DNA of 64,000 bases from the NCBI GenBank assembly GCA_000004985.1, contig GG738923.1. One strand, given 5' to 3'. Below the pieces are notes generated by a model that saw only the letters and a program-made list of their open reading frames with translations, was not told the origin of the DNA and ran no database searches. The translations under genes and the position numbers were made by a program. Positions 1,691 through 56,836 of the stretch are shown here, piece by piece. Positions within the stretch are counted from its first letter, which is position 1. Each line of letters opens with the position of its first letter. This DNA is from Naegleria gruberi. Taxonomy: Eukaryota.

Positions 1691-2749
1691 TTATTCATCA
1701 ATTTCATCATCACTATCTGTTAACTCAGAAGTAGTAATGTATTCCTTCCATGAAAAATTTGAGAATTTCATATTCCAATCCTTTTGGTCTGGTTCTGTAA
1801 TAATTTTCAAATTATCTCCTTCCTTCACACTACAATTATAAATACTTGACATTGCATGATCATAACAATTATCAATTAAATAAAAATCATATCTATAATA
1901 GGTGATTTTGTAGAATTCATAAATAAATGTTGCAATTGAATGGGTGTTGATAAAACAATCCTTATTGACATCTATGTATTGATGTAATAGAAGAAGTTCA
2001 AGAGGGTTATCATTCAACGACAATCTTTGAACATAATCAAATCTCATTCGTTTAAATCCAAGCTTTAAATAAATCAATTGTCTCACTTTTGGATCCATTA
2101 CTTCATTTGGGGAATCAGAATGTTCACACTCAACAATAAATGAGAGAGGCAACTTGTACAGAGTTTCTGAAATATAATCATCCACATTCAGGCCATTAAC
2201 ATTCAAATATTTCATTTGAAGATTCAAAATTTCTCTATCTTTCTCATTCACTCGTTTCAGTAAAATTTCCAAATTTCTATTCAGAGATTCTTCTTTCAAA
2301 ATTTGTTTTGAATACTCCATTAGCTTGTTTGTCAATCTCTGCCCTCTGTAATTTTCATCCACAACTAAATAGCCCAATAATCCACAATTTGACATTGGAT
2401 AATACTCAATTGTGGCAGCTGCTGCAATAGTTCCATAATTATTACTTGTTTCTTGTTTGCACCCTAAATCTTCAAGAAATAAAAAGTGATGAAATCCACA
2501 AAAACCATCATTAAATGTCTTTTCTGATAATAAATAAATAAATTCCTCAAATTCTTCCAATTCTTCTTTCAGTGGAAAATTAGGAACCAACAATTCATCA
2601 TAGAATTTTTGTAATAATTCACGAATTTCCGGTTTAATTTCTTCTACATCTTGATAACGAGTAGTAGAGTGTTTTATTGTTGATTCTTCCGATGTGGTGA
2701 CAAAATACTCTTTGTGTGCATGATTTGTAAGGTGATGAAGTTTAAACAT
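1691..2749 (-). CDS. Hypothetical 352-aa protein; possible acyl-CoA N-acyltransferase-like fold (weak).
   Basis: Complete ATG-to-stop ORF on the minus strand with coding-like composition. The motif GYLVVDENYRGQRLTNKLM loosely resembles GNAT motif A but is not canonical. The C-terminus is acidic (DSDDEIDE). Confidence 0.4.
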   Translation of the reverse strand: MFKLHHLTNHAHKEYFVTTSEESTIKHSTTRYQDVEEIKPEIRELLQKFYDELLVPNFPLKEELEEFEEFIYLLSEKTFNDGFCGFHHFLFLEDLGCKQETSNNYGTIAAAATIEYYPMSNCGLLGYLVVDENYRGQRLTNKLMEYSKQILKEESLNRNLEILLKRVNEKDREILNLQMKYLNVNGLNVDDYISETLYKLPLSFIVECEHSDSPNEVMDPKVRQLIYLKLGFKRMRFDYVQRLSLNDNPLELLLLHQYIDVNKDCFINTHSIATFIYEFYKITYYRYDFYLIDNCYDHAMSSIYNCSVKEGDNLKIITEPDQKDWNMKFSNFSWKEYITTSELTDSDDEIDE

Positions 2750-2805
2750 TTTTTAATAATTAAAAAATTAAAAAGTATAGAATTGAAAAATTAATAAGAA
2801 ATTAT

Positions 2806-4086
2806 TTATTTACGTAAGTGTCTAGCACAGAATTGTTCCAATCTATCATAAGCTTCAACGAGGTCATTCTTAGATGGACAAGTAACAACTCTGAAAAAGT
2901 TCTTCATTCTGAAACATTGACCTGGTAACACGATGAGACTTTCTTCTTTCAATAAAAGTGAGGAGAATTCAACATCGTCATTGATTTGATCATCAAACAT
3001 GTCAATATCAATGCCAATCATACAATACATGGCACCTTGTGGTCTAATGGCTGAGAGTCCCTTAATATTTGAAATTCTTTCAGCTGTATAGTCTGAACTT
3101 TCTTTCAATGATCTATTGAGATTCTTATAGAAGGATGGTTCAACCTTTTCGAAAATATAAGGTAAAGCACCTTGTACGAGAGTATTGGCACCCAAAATTA
3201 ATGTAGTCAATCTTTGAATACCATCTCTGAGTTGATTCATGTAACCCATCTTGTCATAAATGATAATCCAACCAACTCTATAACCTGGAACAAGGAATTG
3301 CTTAGCAATACCACCAACACTCAAAATTGGAACAGTATCTGTCAATTCAGCCATGTGAATGAACTTTTCAGTTTCATCGAAAATCATGTCAGCATAAATT
3401 TCATCAGCAATAATTGGAAGTTTGAATTCTTCAGCAAAATTAATGATATCCTTCAAGTGAGCAGCATCATAGACAGAACCACATGGATTGGATGGATTAT
3501 TTACAAGAATAGCTCTAGTCTTTGATGTAACAAGTGATCTAGCATGTTCCAAGTCAACTTTCCAAGCATCATTTGACTTGAGATTATAATATTTGGCTTC
3601 AATACCTTTGCTACCGGCTAAAGTAGTATAGAGTGAAAAACCTGGTTGTGGAAGTAAAATTTCATCTCCTTCATTACACAATGCTTGAATGCAAATATCG
3701 AGAGCACCACTGGCACCACTACAAATAACGACATCCTATTGTTTGTTCATCAAATGATGCAAGTTCAACATCAACATCATGATATCATTATTAAAAGAGA
3801 AAGAACACTAATAAATACTTACAGACATCTTGACTGAATGATTCTTTAAACTATATCTTGTAGCAACTGCCTTTCTGGCATCATCTCTGCCCATTGATGG
3901 AGCATAACCATTACATTTGCCTTCTTGAACAGCTTTAATGATAGCTTCTTCGACCATCTTGTCTGTCTTTAAATTACCAAATACTGTTGGGTCACCAATA
4001 GAAAGTGAAAGTTTGCTCTTATTTGGATTCATATCTTCATCACGCAGTTTATCAACAATTTGTCGGATTGGATTCACAGTTCTCAT
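2806..4086 (-). CDS. TAT: Tyrosine aminotransferase (PLP-dependent class I aminotransferase). Two exons: 3823..4086 and 2806..3735, with an 87-nt intron 3736..3822 (GTAAGT...CAATAG).
   Basis: Exon 1 encodes MRTVNPIRQIVDKL...SLSIGDPTVFGNL, matching the TAT N-terminal region (FNPIRAIVD, SLSIGDPTVFGNL). Exon 2 encodes DVVICSGASGALDICIQAL...NNPSNPCGSVY...SVGGIAKQFLVPGYRVGW, aligning along its length with vertebrate TAT. The splice keeps the frame: MS then GTAAGT; the acceptor precedes GAT GTC. Confidence 0.85.
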
Positions 4087-48219: not shown

Positions 48220-49290
48220 TTATTGATCGAATCGTTGAGTGTATGGTGTTTCAATACCAATCTTTTTAAGGGCATCAATTGGTAAGGCAAAGGTTGGATC
48301 AATAGTCTTTAAACCATACTTGTCTCCATAACCTAATAAACTCAAACCACCAATTCCAAAGAAGGTGTGGAATACATCAACCATATTATTTGGTCTATCA
48401 CTGATACCTCCCTTTTCAGTGTCTTGACAATTGCAAATGTAGTCATGTAATTTTTCAGCATTAATCCAATGAACACGATCCATAATTCCCAAAGCACTTA
48501 AAACCCACCACGAGTAACAGACATCTGAAAGTTTTTCTGGTCTACCATTGAGACCTCCATTTTCGCATTGTCTTTCACACAACCACCATGAAAGAGTATC
48601 ATGATCAAATCTATCCAATGCTTTGGCAATTGACAAGGCACCAACACAAGTAAAAATTTGTCCAGCATGTGATTCAGCTCCAGGACAAACACCAAATCCT
48701 CCATCAAAGTTTTGGCATGAAAGTACATAATCTACAGTTTTTTCTACATTGATATATTTCTTATTATTGATCTTGTCACCTCTATAATTTGAACAAGTTT
48801 CAAGAAGACCCAATAATGCTAAACAATTGAGTGCACAATAACTAAATCTTGTGTCAATTTCTCCCCATTTATCTCCTGAAAAACTACCATCTTCCTTTTG
48901 TAAAGATCCAATAAATTCACCAATTTTTTCAATTTGTTCAAGAGTTAAAAACTCTTCAATATTACTTGTCAAGAGAACCAATAATTGAACAGCTGATAAT
49001 GTATACAAAATATGAGCATCATGATTAGGAGCTCCAGCAAACCCACCAACATCAGCATGATAACTATCTCTAATAAATTGCAAAATATGTTCTCTATTCA
49101 TTTTCGATGATTCACTCATCAAATCCATACCTGTTAATCCCCAATACATTCCCGACATTCTCAAATGTTCCGTAACACAATACTCGAAGGTTGTTTGTTC
49201 CTTCTCCTCTAAATGTTGAATATAATCAATGTGTGCATGTTTGGCAAATTCTTGTACTGAAGATGATGGTGATGTTTGTTGTTGACTCAT
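48220..49290 (-). CDS. RABGGTB: Rab geranylgeranyltransferase (GGTase-II) beta subunit; single exon, 356 aa.
   Basis: Prenyltransferase alpha-alpha toroid repeats. It aligns strongly with RABGGTB: YCVTEHLRMSGMYWGLTGMDLM, ILYTLSAVQLL, LQKEDGSFSGDKWGEIDTRFSYCAL, LSCQNFDGGFGVCPGAESHAGQIFTCVGAL, WWLCERQCENGGLNGRPEKLSDVCYSWWVLSAL, GGISDRPNNMVDVFHTFFGIGGLSLLG. Confidence 0.85.
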   Translation of the reverse strand: MSQQQTSPSSSVQEFAKHAHIDYIQHLEEKEQTTFEYCVTEHLRMSGMYWGLTGMDLMSESSKMNREHILQFIRDSYHADVGGFAGAPNHDAHILYTLSAVQLLVLLTSNIEEFLTLEQIEKIGEFIGSLQKEDGSFSGDKWGEIDTRFSYCALNCLALLGLLETCSNYRGDKINNKKYINVEKTVDYVLSCQNFDGGFGVCPGAESHAGQIFTCVGALSIAKALDRFDHDTLSWWLCERQCENGGLNGRPEKLSDVCYSWWVLSALGIMDRVHWINAEKLHDYICNCQDTEKGGISDRPNNMVDVFHTFFGIGGLSLLGYGDKYGLKTIDPTFALPIDALKKIGIETPYTQRFDQ

Positions 49291-50442: not shown

Positions 50443-50563
50443 TTTAATTAGACGGTAGCTACCAAATCCAATAACATGAAATATCAAAAGGATTCGGTAG
50501 CCATACCTATTAGACAGATGACTTGATCAACACTTTTCCAGTTTCGAATAAAAAGTGAAAAAA

Positions 50564-52993
50564 ATGTCATACTTTTCCTCTCGTTCCAATGTATTGAGTG
50601 GAAGTGAAGATCTTTCTCTCTTGAGTTCCCGTCAAGTCCCTTCAAAAGAAGAATCCGATTCTGACCATTTAGTTGATTTGAAACATTCTCTCAAGGATTT
50701 ATCTTCTTTTGCATTATACGAAAGGATTGAACAACAACATTTAAAGCATTCTGATTTGTTTAAATTATATTGTCAGAGTATTGCTCCAAATTCGATACCT
50801 CCTTTAACTGTTTCTAACACTAGTAATTCATCATCATCAACAACACCATTACTTGTTCACTCTCGTTCCGAGAATAGTTTACTTTCGAATTCTTCATCCA
50901 ACAATGTATACAAATCACTATTAGAAATGGTAAACTCCAATGATATTCTCTTTTCCATTGTTATTTGGATTGCCACTCAAATCCCACTCAGTCAAAGATA
51001 TTCGAAAAGTTTAAAAAAGAATTTTGACAAAGTTTTCACATGCAAGACTTTTATTTCTCTCTTAACTTCACAACTTCACAAACAACAAATGCTCTACTTT
51101 CCAAGTATAAACTATGCTGGAATTAAGAGTCATATGGATATTGTTGAGAAAATCAATTCACTCTACAAGATATTTAATCCATCGAATCAACTGCAGCAAC
51201 AATCAGTACTTTCGTATAATGATGAATCATTCTCTTTTAAACAAGCTTGGTCAAAGGTTCAGGCTGAAACTTTTGGTCAATTTCTATTAGAAATTGGAAT
51301 TATTCAAAATATTAAGCCAGAGAAGAAGAGAAAATTTGCAGAGAGGTCTCACTATTACATGTTTAGTATAGAAACCATCTTGTACTATGCTGAATTGTTT
51401 TTTGAAGATAAGGTTTCAAGTCAACAACAACAAAATGTTCTCAATCAATTCAGAAATCCAAGTTTTAATGATAGTGGCTTTACTGCATTTTCACAAAATG
51501 TAAATTCTCCATTCTTGTCCAATATTTCAGCTGCCTCAATGCATTTGGTTTCAATTGGACAAAATTTACAAAAGAGTTCCTTATTGAATTTGATTGTTTC
51601 TCAGGAGAGAGAATTTGAAATGATTCAGGGTCATATTAAGAAAACTCATGAAGAAATTGCTCAAGAGTCTAATTCTAGTGGCTCATCATTGGATGTTACT
51701 TCTCCGAGAAGTGGAGAATCACCATCACAACTCAGTGATGCCACAAGTAGTGCATTCTCATTGGTATTTAGACAGGACCATCAACGATCCAAATCGAGAG
51801 ATTTTGCCAGAACTGCACCAAAAGTTAATCACCACAGAATGAGCACCAATTTAAGTTTAAATACTGATCAGATTTGGAATCAACCAAAAGATTTGGAACT
51901 CAAAGAGGTCATTAGAGGAAAGAATCAACACTTATTCGAAACTCCAACCTTGTCACCTCGTTCTAGATTTTACGAAGAAAATGGAATCAAGGCCAAGATT
52001 CAATCCGTTCAACAAGCTCTCAATAATCCAACTATCAATGAGGAATTCACACAATATTGCACCAAGGATCATTCAGAGGAAAATATTCTTTTCTGGAAGG
52101 AAATTCAATCCTATAAAAGGATCCAATCTCCAAGTGAAAGAAAGCTAAAATTCAAAGAATTGGTTTCTCAATTTGTGTCAAGCAATTCTCCACATTCTAC
52201 TCCAGTCAATTTAGAATCAAAGATTGTAACAAGCTTTTTAACACTTGCTGAGGAAAATGAGGAAAATATTTCATTCTTTTCCACTGAAGTTTTCAATGAA
52301 TTGGAATGGTTGGTCGTCAATAATTTGAAAGACACCTTTACAAGATTCAACGATGAAAGAAATAAGGAAATAGATTCTCAAATTGATGAATTACAACAAA
52401 ATCTCAGACTTGAAGCAATCAAGAAGGAGCAACACTCAAAGAGTTTCCTCTCCCAAGTAGCCAGTGCCATTGGTCGTAAGAAGACAAACAGTACATCAAC
52501 AAATAATGCACACAACAATCTCATAATACCACCTCCAAAGCTACAAGTTGCAGTTGAGGAAAACAAGAAGGAAATGGAAAGAGTACCAGCGCATGAGTAT
52601 TGCACTCTTGAGGCTGTTCTTTGCAGTCCCAATGCCAGAAAACAATTTAGAATATTCTGTAAGAAGGAGCATGCTGAGGAGTACATTTTGTTCTTGGATT
52701 CCGTTGATGAGTACAAGACATTTACAGGAAAACTCGACAGATGCAAGAAGGCACACGAAATTTTCAATATATTTATTGAGCTACCAACTTCTGGATCATT
52801 CCTACATGAAGAGGATGTTCGTACTCTCGACTGTACAAAAGATGAAAGAGAAACCATACGTAAAAAGTTAGATAGTGGTGAATTGGAAATGTTTGATGCT
52901 GTAGTAATCAGTATTCAAAATCAAATGTTGGATGTTTACAATCGTTTTGCAACAGCTCAAATGGAATGGAAAGCAAAGAAAATGCTAATGTAA
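50564..52993 (+). CDS. Regulator of G-protein signalling protein with two tandem RGS domains (~810 aa, single exon).
   Basis: First ATG at 50564; the track start at 50555 is GTG. RGS domain 1: FTQYCTKDHSEENILFWKEIQSYKRIQSPSERKLKFKELVSQFVSSNSPHS...VNL. RGS domain 2: FRIFCKKEHAEEYILFLDSVDEYKTF...AHEIFNIFIELPTSGSF...DVYNRF. The N-terminal half is low complexity. Confidence 0.7.
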   Translation: MSYFSSRSNVLSGSEDLSLLSSRQVPSKEESDSDHLVDLKHSLKDLSSFALYERIEQQHLKHSDLFKLYCQSIAPNSIPPLTVSNTSNSSSSTTPLLVHSRSENSLLSNSSSNNVYKSLLEMVNSNDILFSIVIWIATQIPLSQRYSKSLKKNFDKVFTCKTFISLLTSQLHKQQMLYFPSINYAGIKSHMDIVEKINSLYKIFNPSNQLQQQSVLSYNDESFSFKQAWSKVQAETFGQFLLEIGIIQNIKPEKKRKFAERSHYYMFSIETILYYAELFFEDKVSSQQQQNVLNQFRNPSFNDSGFTAFSQNVNSPFLSNISAASMHLVSIGQNLQKSSLLNLIVSQEREFEMIQGHIKKTHEEIAQESNSSGSSLDVTSPRSGESPSQLSDATSSAFSLVFRQDHQRSKSRDFARTAPKVNHHRMSTNLSLNTDQIWNQPKDLELKEVIRGKNQHLFETPTLSPRSRFYEENGIKAKIQSVQQALNNPTINEEFTQYCTKDHSEENILFWKEIQSYKRIQSPSERKLKFKELVSQFVSSNSPHSTPVNLESKIVTSFLTLAEENEENISFFSTEVFNELEWLVVNNLKDTFTRFNDERNKEIDSQIDELQQNLRLEAIKKEQHSKSFLSQVASAIGRKKTNSTSTNNAHNNLIIPPPKLQVAVEENKKEMERVPAHEYCTLEAVLCSPNARKQFRIFCKKEHAEEYILFLDSVDEYKTFTGKLDRCKKAHEIFNIFIELPTSGSFLHEEDVRTLDCTKDERETIRKKLDSGELEMFDAVVISIQNQMLDVYNRFATAQMEWKAKKMLM

Positions 52994-53149: not shown

Positions 53150-54766
53150 TTAATTTGAATGCAATCTTTCCAAACTTGGAATATTTCTTCTGATGATGTA
53201 CTTAATGGTCATGTCTTCTTCCTCTTCCTCTTCTTCATCTTGAATCCATTCTTTACCAAGAGATGTATCACTAAAAACGAGGTCTGGGTTTTCAGTCAAA
53301 TCCAAAACTCTTAACTTTTTTAGTTGACTTTCCTTTGAAGCAAGCAAAATAGAAAACTCGTTAGCGATATTACAATGGCGCAACCATAAATGCTCCAAAT
53401 TGGACAAGAATGGGCTTTTGATAAGTGTACCCAATCCAATATCACCCATTTGGTGGGAAAACAGCTTTAGGATTTTGAGATTTTTCATATTGGAACAATT
53501 AAAATACTGATAGCTCATAGATTGGTCTCGGCCCGCCAACTCTAGCTCTGTAAGATTGTTCAATCTATTGGTAATGTATTTTGTAGACTCTATTGAGAGA
53601 TTATCAACTCCATATAACAGCAAAGATGATAATTTGGTAAATGAGGATGTAATTAGATCTATAGAGTGATCTGTAAGTTTTTCGTTATATGAAATATCCA
53701 GCCTTTTCAATGTCTTTCCAAATTCTCCTCCACATAAAATCTGTATTTCTAGATCAGTTAGTCCACTATCAGGCATTGCTAAAGTCTCTAGTTTACTCAA
53801 TTGGTGCAACTGATCTATATTGATAACTGTTGCTCCCTCAAACTCTAATATTTTCAAATTAGAAAACTTGGGATGCTTGAAATAATTTCCACTCATATCA
53901 ACATAACAAGAATGTGTAATTAATTCCACAATGTTAGAAATATGTTGACAATTTGCCAATTCTTCCATTATTGATACGTCACAAACGTCAGAAATATACA
54001 GCTTGGATAAATTTTTCATATTTTCGTTTTGGAGAAGTTGTTTAAAACTACCTTCCTCAATATTACAATGTTTCATCTGAAGACAAGTTAAACTTTCCAT
54101 TCTAGAAATAGCCTTGCAAGGATCTCTAATACCATTCAATTTGATTGTTTTCATATTTTTTCTCAAAATTTCATTATTAGCTATCGGATAAAGGTTTTCA
54201 ATACTTGAATTGAATTCCAAGTTCAATTCAATCAAATTGCACATGAATTTCTCATCAATTAGTCCACAAAATTCACAAATATTTTCATCTGATAAATGAT
54301 TGGAACTCAAATCAAGACTGGTCAAGTTGGGAAATAAGGAAATGTCTGTATTGGACTCTTTCAGTTCCCTGAAAACCTCAATTCCATCTCCTAAACAGCA
54401 TCTAGAGAATGTTAAACATTTCAATCTATCCTTCAATACTTGACTTTCAAAAATTGATTCTAAATACTCTTTACCTTCATCATTACTTGCAGTAATTTCA
54501 ACAAATTCCAACGAATAATCCAAGAGTTCAGAAGCATGCCACCAATCCACAGAAATTAAACGAGCCACCGATAATACAAACTGACTATCCAAATATTCGC
54601 AAATATTAAAACATAAATCCTTGGAAAATACAGATATTAGCCTTCCGAGTGATTTTCTTTTCTTATTTGATGATGATCCGTTAATATTGCCATCATGATC
54701 AGAATCACTATTATCATCATCATCGGAATGGGTGTGAGCATCAATCTGTTCTACTTGTCTTTTCAT
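53150..54766 (-). CDS. Leucine-rich-repeat protein with an F-box-like N-terminal region (538 aa, single exon).
   Basis: ATG at 54764-54766. After an acidic His/Asp/Ser-rich leader comes RLISVFSKDLCFNICEYLDSQFVLSVARLISVDWW (F-box-like). Multiple LRRs follow (LTSLDLSSNHLSDENI, LIELNLEFNSSIENL, LTELELAG, LKILKLFSHQMGDIG, LEHLWLRHCNI, LRVLDLTENPDLV). Confidence 0.6.
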   Translation of the reverse strand: MKRQVEQIDAHTHSDDDDNSDSDHDGNINGSSSNKKRKSLGRLISVFSKDLCFNICEYLDSQFVLSVARLISVDWWHASELLDYSLEFVEITASNDEGKEYLESIFESQVLKDRLKCLTFSRCCLGDGIEVFRELKESNTDISLFPNLTSLDLSSNHLSDENICEFCGLIDEKFMCNLIELNLEFNSSIENLYPIANNEILRKNMKTIKLNGIRDPCKAISRMESLTCLQMKHCNIEEGSFKQLLQNENMKNLSKLYISDVCDVSIMEELANCQHISNIVELITHSCYVDMSGNYFKHPKFSNLKILEFEGATVINIDQLHQLSKLETLAMPDSGLTDLEIQILCGGEFGKTLKRLDISYNEKLTDHSIDLITSSFTKLSSLLLYGVDNLSIESTKYITNRLNNLTELELAGRDQSMSYQYFNCSNMKNLKILKLFSHQMGDIGLGTLIKSPFLSNLEHLWLRHCNIANEFSILLASKESQLKKLRVLDLTENPDLVFSDTSLGKEWIQDEEEEEEEDMTIKYIIRRNIPSLERLHSN

Positions 54767-54869: not shown

Positions 54870-56048
54870 TTAAATATTTGAAATATCTGGTAGAGCACTC
54901 CATGCACTACTTTCAATTCCACATTCATCAGCACCTCTCAACATCCAAAACATTCCATTCTTTTAAAAGATATTGATATTATCTAATTGACATGGAAATA
55001 GATGAAAAACTTACATTTCCCCAATCCGTTCCAAACTCAAATACACAAATCCCTTTAAAGTGTTAATTATTTAACATGATGAAATATTGTAAACTTACAA
55101 TATGGAGTTTGGTCTTCAGCAACTCCCCAACCAATTATTTTAGTGGATGAAAAAGATCCAATATCTTGATCCAAATGTTGATAAACTCCACTCTTGTAAT
55201 TATATAAATCACTTGTGTCAAAGTTTCATTCACACTTTTTGTAAACTCAAATGTACTTACAAATACATCTTGAATCCTGCAGTAATTGAACCATATTTCA
55301 TAATGTCCCTTTGCATGTCTGTGATAATATCCAATGAACCAACACTTCCCTTCTTTATCTTGTATCTTTTCAATGGAGATCCATCTTTACATTGGGTTGA
55401 ACAAGAATCAAACACTTCACCACCTCCACTGCTATATGGAATACATTCCTCAGTAGTTGTTCCATTTCCTTCCAAATAGCTAAAAATATTAGATTCTACT
55501 GCACCTTGACAACCTTGTCTGTCTCTGTCACATTCCAACATGTATTGAGATGAGAGGAGTTTCTTGAATTTTCCACCAGTTGCAATGCAAAATCTATCAG
55601 AAATGGAATCAACAATTGTGAATGTGCCAACTGCGCTGCAACTCATAATATTGTTGGCTGGGAATACACACCCAGGCCATTTCTCTCTCACATCAAATGT
55701 TAATGGAATATCATCATTGTTTTCTTGATGATACACATGTCTCTTTCCAATTCTGGAGGTAAATGATGAAGGAGAATTTGCTAATGAATCATCAATTTGA
55801 GGAAGATTCTTCACAAAATCCTTCCACTCTTGTGTTTCAAACTTTTCATATCGTGTGGCTTTCCATTTTGAATTCGGATTGGAATTAATCTTATCGATTT
55901 TATCCTGGCTCATTTGGAAACCATTTGTTAAGATTACAAAATTTGTGGACATGATGATCATGGTAGAGAGTAAGACCACTACAAGGAAGGCAATGGATGA
56001 TGAAGACCTTCTTGCAGTTAATTGATTGCCTGTTACTAGATGTTTCAT
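54870..56048 (-). CDS. Cathepsin B-like (papain family C1A) homologue that is predicted non-catalytic. It has an N-terminal signal-anchor and four exons: 55261..56048, 55099..55211, 55015..55052, 54870..54959; introns of 49, 46 and 55 nt, all GTAAGT donors.
   Basis: It aligns with cathepsin B: FDVREKWPGC...SCSAVGTFTIVDSISDRFCIATG vs FDAREQWPQC...[23 protein letters not shown] (the catalytic Cys position is Val); DIMKYGSITAGFKMY / DLYNYKSGVYQH / GSFSSTKIIGWGVAEDQTPYW vs DIMAEIYKNGPVEGAFSVY / DFLLYKSGVYQH / GGHAIRILGWGVENGTPYW (the catalytic His position is Ser); ...NGMFWMLRGADECGIESSAWSALP vs [25 protein letters not shown]. The N-terminus MKHLVTGNQLTARRSSSSIAFLVVVLLSTMIIMSTNFVIL is a TM anchor. 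Confidence 0.7.
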
Positions 56049-56233: not shown

Positions 56234-56836
56234 TTACAATTCATCGTGTTTTGTTGATTTACATTCACAAGCTTCTTGAATACTTTTTGTATAGGCATCA
56301 CATCCAAAAGCATTCACTCCCCAACTGAACATTGTTGCTGTTGTAGAACATTCATCCTTTTCCTTCTTTTTCTTTGTTTTGCAGTGACCATTTAAACATT
56401 CGGTAAATTCCGAATCACATTGCTCCTTACTCTTAGAACAATCAGTGTAACAAATATCATGTTCATTACAACAATTAGTAAATCCAATCTTGTCTGAAAT
56501 GTGGTTAAATTCACCCGAAGGTCCACATCCATTAAAAATAGCCTTATAACCTGCTTTTTTAATTAATGATTGTCCCTTTGGACAAGTCATTCCACAGACT
56601 TCATTCTCTCCACCTCCGAATAAATCCTCCAAATTAATTTGTTGCATATTTGAATTTTTAGCTGAGACATTCTCAATGACAAAATACGACACAATCACGA
56701 TGATGATGGTAATCATCAGAACAACAAGGAAGCTTTTGCCTACCACATGTTGATTCATTTTTTTTAATTCCGGAATAAAAAACGTGTTTTTTGTACTGCC
56801 TTTTCGATATCTTTCAAATTTCACAAAGATTTTCAT
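56234..56836 (-). CDS. PLA2G12: Group XII-type secreted phospholipase A2 homologue ending in the ER-retention-like motif HDEL. The signal peptide probably starts at the internal Met (56756..56758).
   Basis: CGMTCPKGQSL...NGCGPSG...TNCCNEHDICYTDCSKSKEQCDSEFTECLNGHC matches human PLA2G12A (CPKGFKP...NGCGSPLFG...KCCNQHDRCYETCGKSKNDCDEEFQYCLSKIC). This includes the catalytic CCxxHDxCY and the Ca-loop GCG. The C-terminus is ...KSTKHDEL. The first ATG is 56836; the hydrophobic MNQHVVGKSFLVVLMITIIIVIVSYFVIENVSA begins 26 codons later. Confidence 0.75.
   Translation of the reverse strand: MKIFVKFERYRKGSTKNTFFIPELKKMNQHVVGKSFLVVLMITIIIVIVSYFVIENVSAKNSNMQQINLEDLFGGGENEVCGMTCPKGQSLIKKAGYKAIFNGCGPSGEFNHISDKIGFTNCCNEHDICYTDCSKSKEQCDSEFTECLNGHCKTKKKKEKDECSTTATMFSWGVNAFGCDAYTKSIQEACECKSTKHDEL

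Follow-up and report, generated by a model that had tools for sequence, protein, structure and literature searches.

Introduction

Cathepsin B-like proteins that can no longer act as peptidases have evolved independently more than once. TINAG carries an N-terminal somatomedin-B domain, and its catalytic Cys is replaced by Ser. In Trichobilharzia regenti, the inactive cathepsin B TrCB1.6 is trans-processed by active cathepsins/legumain and only then binds cystatin (PMC7054455). The EhCP-C proteins of Entamoeba histolytica, whose function is unknown, feature a hydrophobic region 11–28 residues from the N-terminus that is predicted to be a signal anchor; they are filed under C1A, yet no structurally related cysteine peptidase is known for them, and the active-site residues of members C9, C11 and C12 are not identifiable (PMC1913524). 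Naegleria gruberi has 35 C01 genes versus 20–21 in N. fowleri, a difference accounted for by at least three cathepsin B expansions specific to N. gruberi (PMC8296547).

The gene described here lies in a 64,000-nucleotide stretch of the N. gruberi NEG-M genome, the whole of which is referred to as the window. An earlier note, made from the DNA letters alone, had proposed that it encodes a membrane-anchored cathepsin B paralogue with both catalytic residues replaced. Our analysis indicates that the product is probably a catalytically inert, procathepsin B-like pseudoprotease that is specific to the N. gruberi lineage and is being kept as a gene.

Results and Discussion

Gene structure and annotation

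The minus-strand gene at 54870–56048, whose limits coincide exactly with its start and stop codons, consists of four exons (Table 1). In the corrected model described below, the coding sequence is in frame over 1029 nt and encodes 342 amino acids, and each of the three introns (49, 46 and 55 nt) has the form GTAAGT...AG. The window has a G+C content of about 33% throughout and is dense in genes, with few and very short introns. Five of its single-exon ORFs match annotated NEG-M proteins exactly, among them the immediate downstream neighbour at 53150–54766, the LRR protein EFC37000.1. Scans for tRNA and Rfam families over the 50–60 kb part of the window returned nothing.

The gene is already known to databases, but only as an uncharacterised "predicted protein" of 335 amino acids (EFC37001.1 / XP_002669745.1 / UniProt D2W1P7 / NAEGRDRAFT_75331, in the 90%-identity cluster of the best match), and literature and supplement searches on the gene identifiers revealed no mention of it. 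The EFC37001.1 model uses an acceptor AG at 55191–55192, 21 nt further downstream than ours, which extends intron 1 to 70 nt and eliminates the residues DLYNYKS. In the corrected model, this segment fills the near-invariant family columns D-F-x-x-Y-K-S, where EFC37001.1 is gapped. The AlphaFold2 model of EFC37001.1 has a pLDDT of 59 in the block 261–270, which is exactly the altered splice junction, and is confident in the rest of the domain. The fit to these columns and the low confidence at the annotated junction thus favor the 49-nt intron, which on alignment and structure prediction appears to be the better model.

Table 1. Positions in the window of the cathepsin B-like gene and its features, following the corrected model.
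Feature	Position	Strand	Evidence or comment
Whole gene, ATG to stop (NAEGRDRAFT_75331 / EFC37001.1)	54870–56048	-	Exon/intron structure; tblastn with active homologues gives the same exon limits
Exon 1, 788 nt, residues 1–262 plus 2 nt	55261–56048	-	Uninterrupted ORF, then GTAAGT at 55260
Exon 1 content: N-terminal hydrophobic segment, pro-region, and L-domain with mutated Cys site	55261–56048	-	
Hydrophobic segment, residues 19–41, IAFLVVVLLSTMIIMSTNFVILT	55926–55994	-	Possible type II signal anchor, or else the core of a long signal peptide
Pro-region homologue, about residues 44–113	55710–55919	-	Weak Propeptide_C1 match and zymogen alignment of the model
Ile134, codon ATT, oxyanion-hole Gln position	55647–55649	-	Alignments
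Val140, codon GTT, catalytic Cys position (Cys29 of cathepsin B)	55629–55631	-	Alignments; same motif in strain variant P0001
Intron 1, 49 nt (corrected model)	55212–55260	-	Upstream acceptor brings back DLYNYKS
Exon 2, 113 nt, with mutated His site	55099–55211	-	Translation and tblastn
Ser284, codon TCA, catalytic His position	55148–55150	-	Alignments
Intron 2, 46 nt, GTAAGT...AG	55053–55098	-	
Exon 3, 38 nt, with Phe305 (55039–55041; catalytic Asn position) and Phe307 (conserved Trp position)	55015–55052	-	Alignments
Intron 3, 55 nt, GTAAGT...AG	54960–55014	-	
Exon 4, conserved C-terminus NGMFWMLRGADECGIES, stop codon TAA at 54870–54872	54870–54959	-	ORF, translation, tblastn

Fold and family assignment

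Alignments and structure prediction point to a complete papain/cathepsin B fold that has the four core disulfides, a cathepsin B-type prodomain and no occluding loop. Pfam Peptidase_C1 (PF00112) matched residues 114–334 (E = 1.6e-37; 130 bits versus a cut-off of 20.7) over profile positions 1–218 of 220. Propeptide_C1 (PF08127) gave a weak match at residues 47–71 (22.3 bits versus a cut-off of 32.7), and the Pfam scan of the 342-residue protein found no domain besides these two. In a HMMER search against PDB chains, the closest solved structure was the S. mansoni procathepsin B1 zymogen (E = 6.6e-39), and all of the top 25 matches were cathepsin B or cathepsin B-like.

AlphaFold2 and Foldseek were run with the annotated 335-residue protein EFC37001.1. 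The resulting model had a mean pLDDT of 83.8 and a pTM of 0.80, with values above 90 through most of the C1 domain. Its best Foldseek matches were the procathepsin B zymogens 4i04, 5fpw, 1pbh, 1mir and 4hwy (E about 1e-22 to 1e-20), with alignments of 303–328 columns that include the pro-region (TM 0.74–0.81), and all of the top 32 matches were (pro)cathepsin B. All four core cathepsin B disulfides are represented by their cysteines (C127, C137, C154, C173, C180, C202, C216 and C220), eight in total, which occupy invariant columns, in keeping with the earlier description of a four-exon gene with most structural cysteines conserved, and some 35 further fold-defining residues are likewise kept in invariant columns. 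A MAFFT alignment revealed that the occluding loop, the defining feature of vertebrate cathepsin B with its two His residues and disulfide, is missing from this protein and from every nearest active protist relative.

Catalytic site

The two strings quoted in the earlier note as marking the lost dyad are both present in the translation, SCSAVGTF at residues 136–143 and GSFSSTKIIGWG at residues 281–292. Three alignments agree on the substitutions: HMMER to PDB chains, a profile of about 280 relatives, and the MAFFT alignment, which included human cathepsin B and Naegleria/Willaertia paralogues. In this cathepsin B-type C1 domain, Val140 replaces the catalytic Cys and Ser284 the catalytic His, as had been claimed. 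The oxyanion Gln is also lost, as had been noticed, with Ile134 at its position. The damage extends beyond what had been described: the catalytic Asn is replaced by Phe305, and the flanking Trp residues are replaced by Gly141 (after the Cys position) and Phe307 (the Trp of the NSW motif, two residues past Asn). The substrate-binding GCxGG motif is altered at its second Gly as well (CQGAV), and the replacements at the lost active-site positions are mostly hydrophobic (Ile, Val, Phe, Phe). As Gln, Cys, His and Asn are all replaced, the protein is predicted to be a non-peptidase homologue (pseudoprotease) of cathepsin B.

Among 289 near-full-length relatives, 271 carry Q-C-H-N-W at the five tabulated positions, and the combination I-V-S-F-F is found in this protein alone. 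In about 17 of these 289 relatives, one or more catalytic residues have been lost independently, and loss of catalysis is thus recurrent and unremarkable within the cathepsin B subfamily.

An extremely improbable explanation of these substitutions is an artefact of the gene model, with the true transcript restoring Cys and His, or a still-active enzyme that uses other residues. The annotated model does contain one splice error, the acceptor placed 21 nt too far downstream, but Val140 sits inside the uninterrupted 788-nt exon, and the flanks of the exons that encode Ser284 and Phe305 align perfectly with homologues. The same Val140 motif is present in an independent strain. Searches of the 64-kb window by tblastn with two active relatives matched only the known exons and revealed no second cathepsin gene, no further cathepsin-like coding sequence, and none of the alternative exons restoring Cys and His that the earlier note had named as a way in which its reading could fail. 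Also speaking against this explanation, all four catalytic positions are replaced, together with the Trp residues that shield the dyad.

N-terminal segment

The first 18 residues, MKHLVTGNQLTARRSSSS, form a polar, basic N-region (K2, R13, R14), which is followed by a 23-residue hydrophobic run at residues 19–41. The Kyte–Doolittle maximum over 19 residues is 2.4, at residue 22, and AlphaFold2 models residues 18–40 as one continuous helix. In the active paralogues, the hydrophobic segments are shorter: they start at residues 3–14 and terminate in small-residue cleavage motifs. The hydrophobic core of a typical signal peptide spans 7–15 residues. A type II signal anchor at the N-terminus of the pseudoprotease, as the earlier note had suggested, is therefore plausible from its sequence and predicted structure.

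The stretch could also be a long cleavable signal peptide, in which case the dead cathepsin B-like protein would be soluble and either lysosomal or secreted. This is a tenable but doubtful possibility. All of the active paralogues have signal peptides of the cleavable type, with peak hydropathies of 2.1–2.7, so that the value of 2.4 is no higher here than in proteins that are presumed to be cleaved. The hydrophobic stretch is also followed by a small-residue motif, T-N-G before F (residues 41–44), and the conserved propeptide motif begins only about five residues past it. Nevertheless, an N-region of 18 residues with three basic residues and a hydrophobic run of about 23, above the typical length, are poorly accounted for by a cleavable peptide, as is the single continuous helix of the model. 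The hydrophobic segments of Entamoeba EhCP-C are similarly placed and are predicted signal anchors.

Relatives and origin

An exhaustive HMMER search with exon 1 as the query against 1.84 billion cluster representatives returned only one match above about 41% identity, the 98% identical protein P0001. It is encoded on a metagenome contig, L001, which is 97.1% identical to the window across 3.2 kb, and this level of identity indicates that L001 derives from another N. gruberi-like strain. The nearest sequences are protist cathepsin B proteins without an occluding loop (34–42% identity), and no terminal branch in a neighbor-joining distance tree of 191 sequences is longer than that of this protein.

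The closest named Naegleria protein is the active N. fowleri enzyme FDP41_010956 (38% identity). It appeared as the sister in a first neighbor-joining tree but was rejected as an orthologue, as it has its own 61% identical orthologue in N. gruberi and the grouping vanished when more sequences were included. The FDP41_010956 locus has an unrelated, non-syntenic neighborhood. Searches for an orthologue of the pseudoprotease turned up none in N. fowleri, N. lovaniensis or Willaertia. A GGTase-II beta gene neighbors the pseudoprotease in the window, but neither the loci around the GGTase-II beta genes of N. fowleri and N. lovaniensis nor that of FDP41_010956 have other neighbors in common with the window; synteny is not conserved there. 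A dead, fast-evolving singleton of this kind is an expected by-product of the cathepsin B expansions in N. gruberi.

A contrasting origin would be a long-standing family of dead cathepsin B-like proteins in Heterolobosea with a conserved non-catalytic function, shared with Willaertia magna (KAL9654558.1) and several environmental eukaryotes. A neighbor-joining tree with 57 sequences unites the N. gruberi protein with four homologues in which Gln and Cys are missing: one from W. magna (P0143) and three encoded on metagenome contigs (P0146, P0213 and P0247). In each of the five, the Gly before the catalytic His position is gone, and N-terminal residues (MKHL...IAFL) are common to P0143 and the N. 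gruberi protein. We nevertheless consider such a family improbable. The bootstrap value is only 19% and the sister group varies among replicates, which suggests that the grouping is probably a result of long-branch attraction. The motifs D-E-G-x-C-G, CSGGFL and GPVQAV are common to the other four but absent here, identity to those four (30–36%) is no higher than to active relatives, and no member was found in N. fowleri or N. lovaniensis. A more specific form, in which the protein is the N. gruberi member of an ancient Heterolobosea family of membrane-tethered dead procathepsin B, shared with W. magna and uncultured relatives, and has a non-proteolytic job at the phagosome or cell surface (as a receptor, or in sequestering endogenous or prey-derived cysteine-protease inhibitors), is very improbable. 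If it were true, the excess of amino-acid changes between strains, described below, would reflect adaptive evolution of a binding surface.

Maintained gene or relic

Comparison with the L001 strain revealed 5 substitutions in the 854 nt of exon sequence compared. The flanking DNA has 8 in 234 nt (3 in the 49 nt of intron 1, and 5 in 185 nt of the 5' intergenic spacer, plus indels), a rate at which about 29 exon differences would be expected instead of the 5 observed (Poisson P about 4e-8). The exons are thus about fivefold less diverged than the adjacent non-coding DNA, which indicates that the coding sequence is constrained.

Each of the five exon differences is non-synonymous: three are in the pro-region linker, one is N187D, and the last, F213V, falls in the loop that stands in place of the occluding one. 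Relative to L001, the neighboring ADH gene differs by 1 non-synonymous and 6 synonymous substitutions (Fisher p = 0.015 versus 5:0 here). The dN of 0.0074 is about 0.27 of the neighbor gene's dS, and no synonymous change occurs where 4.7 would be expected (P = 0.009). As the coding changes are all non-synonymous, unlike those of the ADH gene, constraint on the protein would be weak, and the comparison, which covers few events, suggests only weak purifying selection on a gene that is maintained but weakly constrained. The five changes could reflect neutral drift in variable regions or, possibly, some positive selection.

These data also bear on whether the gene is a functionless relic, that is, a recent duplicate that has lost activity and is drifting towards pseudogenization, with a frame that is intact only because the loss is recent. 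Its branch is the longest among the 191 relatives, the 5:0 ratio relative to the close strain is compatible with neutrality (P = 0.32), unlike that of the neighboring gene, and no orthologue is known beyond N. gruberi-like strains. Neither spliced isoform was found among the transcript-derived proteins of the databases searched, and the cathepsin B family is large and redundant. We still regard a relic as unlikely. At 30–40% identity to its relatives, the protein has kept eight disulfide cysteines, about 35 invariant residues, three canonical introns and an open frame, and such divergence without any disabling mutation makes neutrality unlikely. The fivefold lower divergence of the exons relative to adjacent intron and intergenic DNA (P about 4e-8) and the confident AlphaFold2 model likewise argue against it.

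Proposed origin and role

For the lineage-specific, maintained pseudoprotease that we favor, the following course is proposed. The gene most likely stems from a cathepsin B duplication specific to N. gruberi; it would then have lost catalysis and evolved rapidly, the intact gene still being kept under weak purifying selection. The N-terminal hydrophobic segment would send the protein to the secretory or endolysosomal pathway. The segment probably serves as a type II anchor that stays uncleaved, so that the C1 domain would face the lumen or the cell exterior; one N-glycosylation sequon, at N195, is consistent with this topology.

Peptide cleavage and self-removal of the propeptide should be impossible, so any function would be non-catalytic. 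One possibility is a binding or regulatory module tethered to the membrane, perhaps once active cathepsins have processed it in trans, as they do TrCB1.6; another is a permanently zymogen-like scaffold. Without the nucleophile there would be no auto-activation, so that the protein should stay in a zymogen-like state in which the former cleft is covered, unless it is trimmed by a different protease. Such a state, as modeled, weakens the idea of a substrate or inhibitor receptor, although TrCB1.6, which binds cystatin once it has been trans-processed, leaves room for it. The receptor for protease substrates or inhibitors that the earlier note had envisaged is speculation, and a binding or regulatory role is one that we infer purely from analogues.

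The significance of this locus is modest overall. The analysis provides a corrected gene model for a "predicted protein" of N. gruberi, which can now be labelled a "non-peptidase cathepsin B homologue", and contributes a protist case to the set of dead cathepsin B proteins of independent origin (TINAG, TrCB1.5 and TrCB1.6). When protease complements are compared between the harmless N. gruberi and the pathogenic N. fowleri, the 35 C01 genes of the former include at least one that cannot be counted as a protease. If expressed and membrane-bound, the protein would be a tractable case for studying the role of dead lysosomal proteases in a free-living phagotroph.

Comparison with known systems

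The earlier note had matched the protein to the non-peptidase cathepsin B homologues TINAG and TINAGL1. TINAG proteins belong to the secretory pathway, as the present protein probably does, and both have a cathepsin B-like domain without the catalytic Cys, but the match does not hold beyond the common C1 fold. TINAG and TINAGL1 are metazoan matrix proteins with a Cys-rich N-terminal domain (SMB) and a Cys-to-Ser replacement, whereas the N. gruberi protein has no cysteine before residue 127. The TINAG-like match P0154 keeps Gln and has Ser, while here Gln, Cys, His and Asn are all lost and the occluding-loop region is absent. The protein is placed outside the metazoan TINAG clade, among protist cathepsin B proteins that lack the occluding loop, and this placement indicates that the resemblance is convergent, with an independent origin within the protist group.

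That group (MEROPS family C1A), which includes FDP41_010956, Fowlerpain-2 and the N. gruberi paralogue P0284, has the same fold, four disulfides and short loop, and apparently the same type of pro-region. Its members keep Q-C-H-N and Trp, whereas the present protein has I-V-S-F with Gly/Phe, an extended N-terminal region, and a branch far longer than any other.

Closer parallels in terms of function may be TrCB1.5 and TrCB1.6, which are also lineage-specific dead paralogues in an expanded cathepsin B family and do not auto-process; by analogy, we consider them the best functional counterparts and, among such proteins, the model best studied by experiment. TrCB1.6 differs in having a single Cys29-to-Gly replacement in an otherwise intact active site, in keeping its occluding loop, and in being soluble and highly expressed. 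For the predicted signal-anchored architecture, the best analogue appears to be EhCP-C. These proteins are much longer (473–627 amino acids) and come from an unrelated eukaryotic supergroup, so that the signal anchor would have been acquired independently. Overall, the N. gruberi protein falls outside every named family but behaves like other C1 pseudoproteases, with nothing mechanistically surprising about it.

The public model of the cathepsin B-like gene, EFC37001.1 (335 aa), uses the acceptor for intron 1 tabulated under its name, and in the AlphaFold2 model of this annotated form confidence drops precisely at the resulting junction. Choosing the alternative acceptor listed in the table regains DLYNYKS, a stretch of seven residues that is near-invariant across the family.

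Comparison of window positions 55261-56048 with positions 2284-3075 of L001, a metagenome contig from a 97%-identical environmental strain, revealed five non-synonymous and no synonymous differences, versus one non-synonymous and six synonymous differences in the adjoining ADH gene. For the cathepsin B-like gene, 4.7 synonymous differences were expected where none was observed (P about 0.009).

Directly upstream and on the same strand lies a homologue of the group XII secretory phospholipase A2 (PLA2G12). Its likely N-terminus, MNQHVVGKSFLVVLMITIIIVIVSYFVI, also appears signal-anchor-like, so that two genes of the secretory pathway adjoin each other. An ORF with an RGS domain is found two genes from the cathepsin B-like gene. 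With the loci L003 and L005, from N. fowleri and N. lovaniensis, this N. gruberi region has just one gene in common, the one for GGTase-II beta; none of twelve neighbouring window ORFs matched these 20-kb loci (tblastn, E below 1e-3), thus indicating poor local synteny within the genus at this region.

Features of the region and catalytic positions of loop-less homologues
Feature	Location	Strand	Detail
GGTase-II beta gene	48220-49290		
RGS-domain ORF	50555-52990	+	812 aa; E=1.9e-21
Intron 1 region	55190-55260	-	
Acceptor, EFC37001.1	55191-55192	-	
Acceptor regaining DLYNYKS	55212-55213	-	
PLA2G12 homologue	56234-56836	-	E=1.3e-20
P0143 (Willaertia magna KAL9654558.1)			Gln/Cys/His/Asn = E-N-D-T
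L006, metagenome	3001-3864		E-S-S-?
L007, metagenome	3001-3828		E-T-H-N
L008, metagenome	2449-3372		V-N-H-N

Relatives from transcriptomes and metagenomes include proteins of 550-770 aa in which active cathepsin B domains stand in tandem pairs or triplets, and others in which an ML/MD-2 lipid-binding domain (PF02221), placed N-terminally, or saposin domains are fused to cathepsin B (P0002, P0003, P0131, P0282 and P0283; P0004 and P0010; P0014 and P0019). Other loop-less cathepsin B homologues differ in which of the catalytic residues at the Gln, Cys, His and Asn positions are lost. The four tabulated, of which the metagenome ORFs end early, at introns, have the D-E-G-x-C-G and CSGGFL motifs in common, and may represent a genuine dead clade in heterolobosean-like amoebae.
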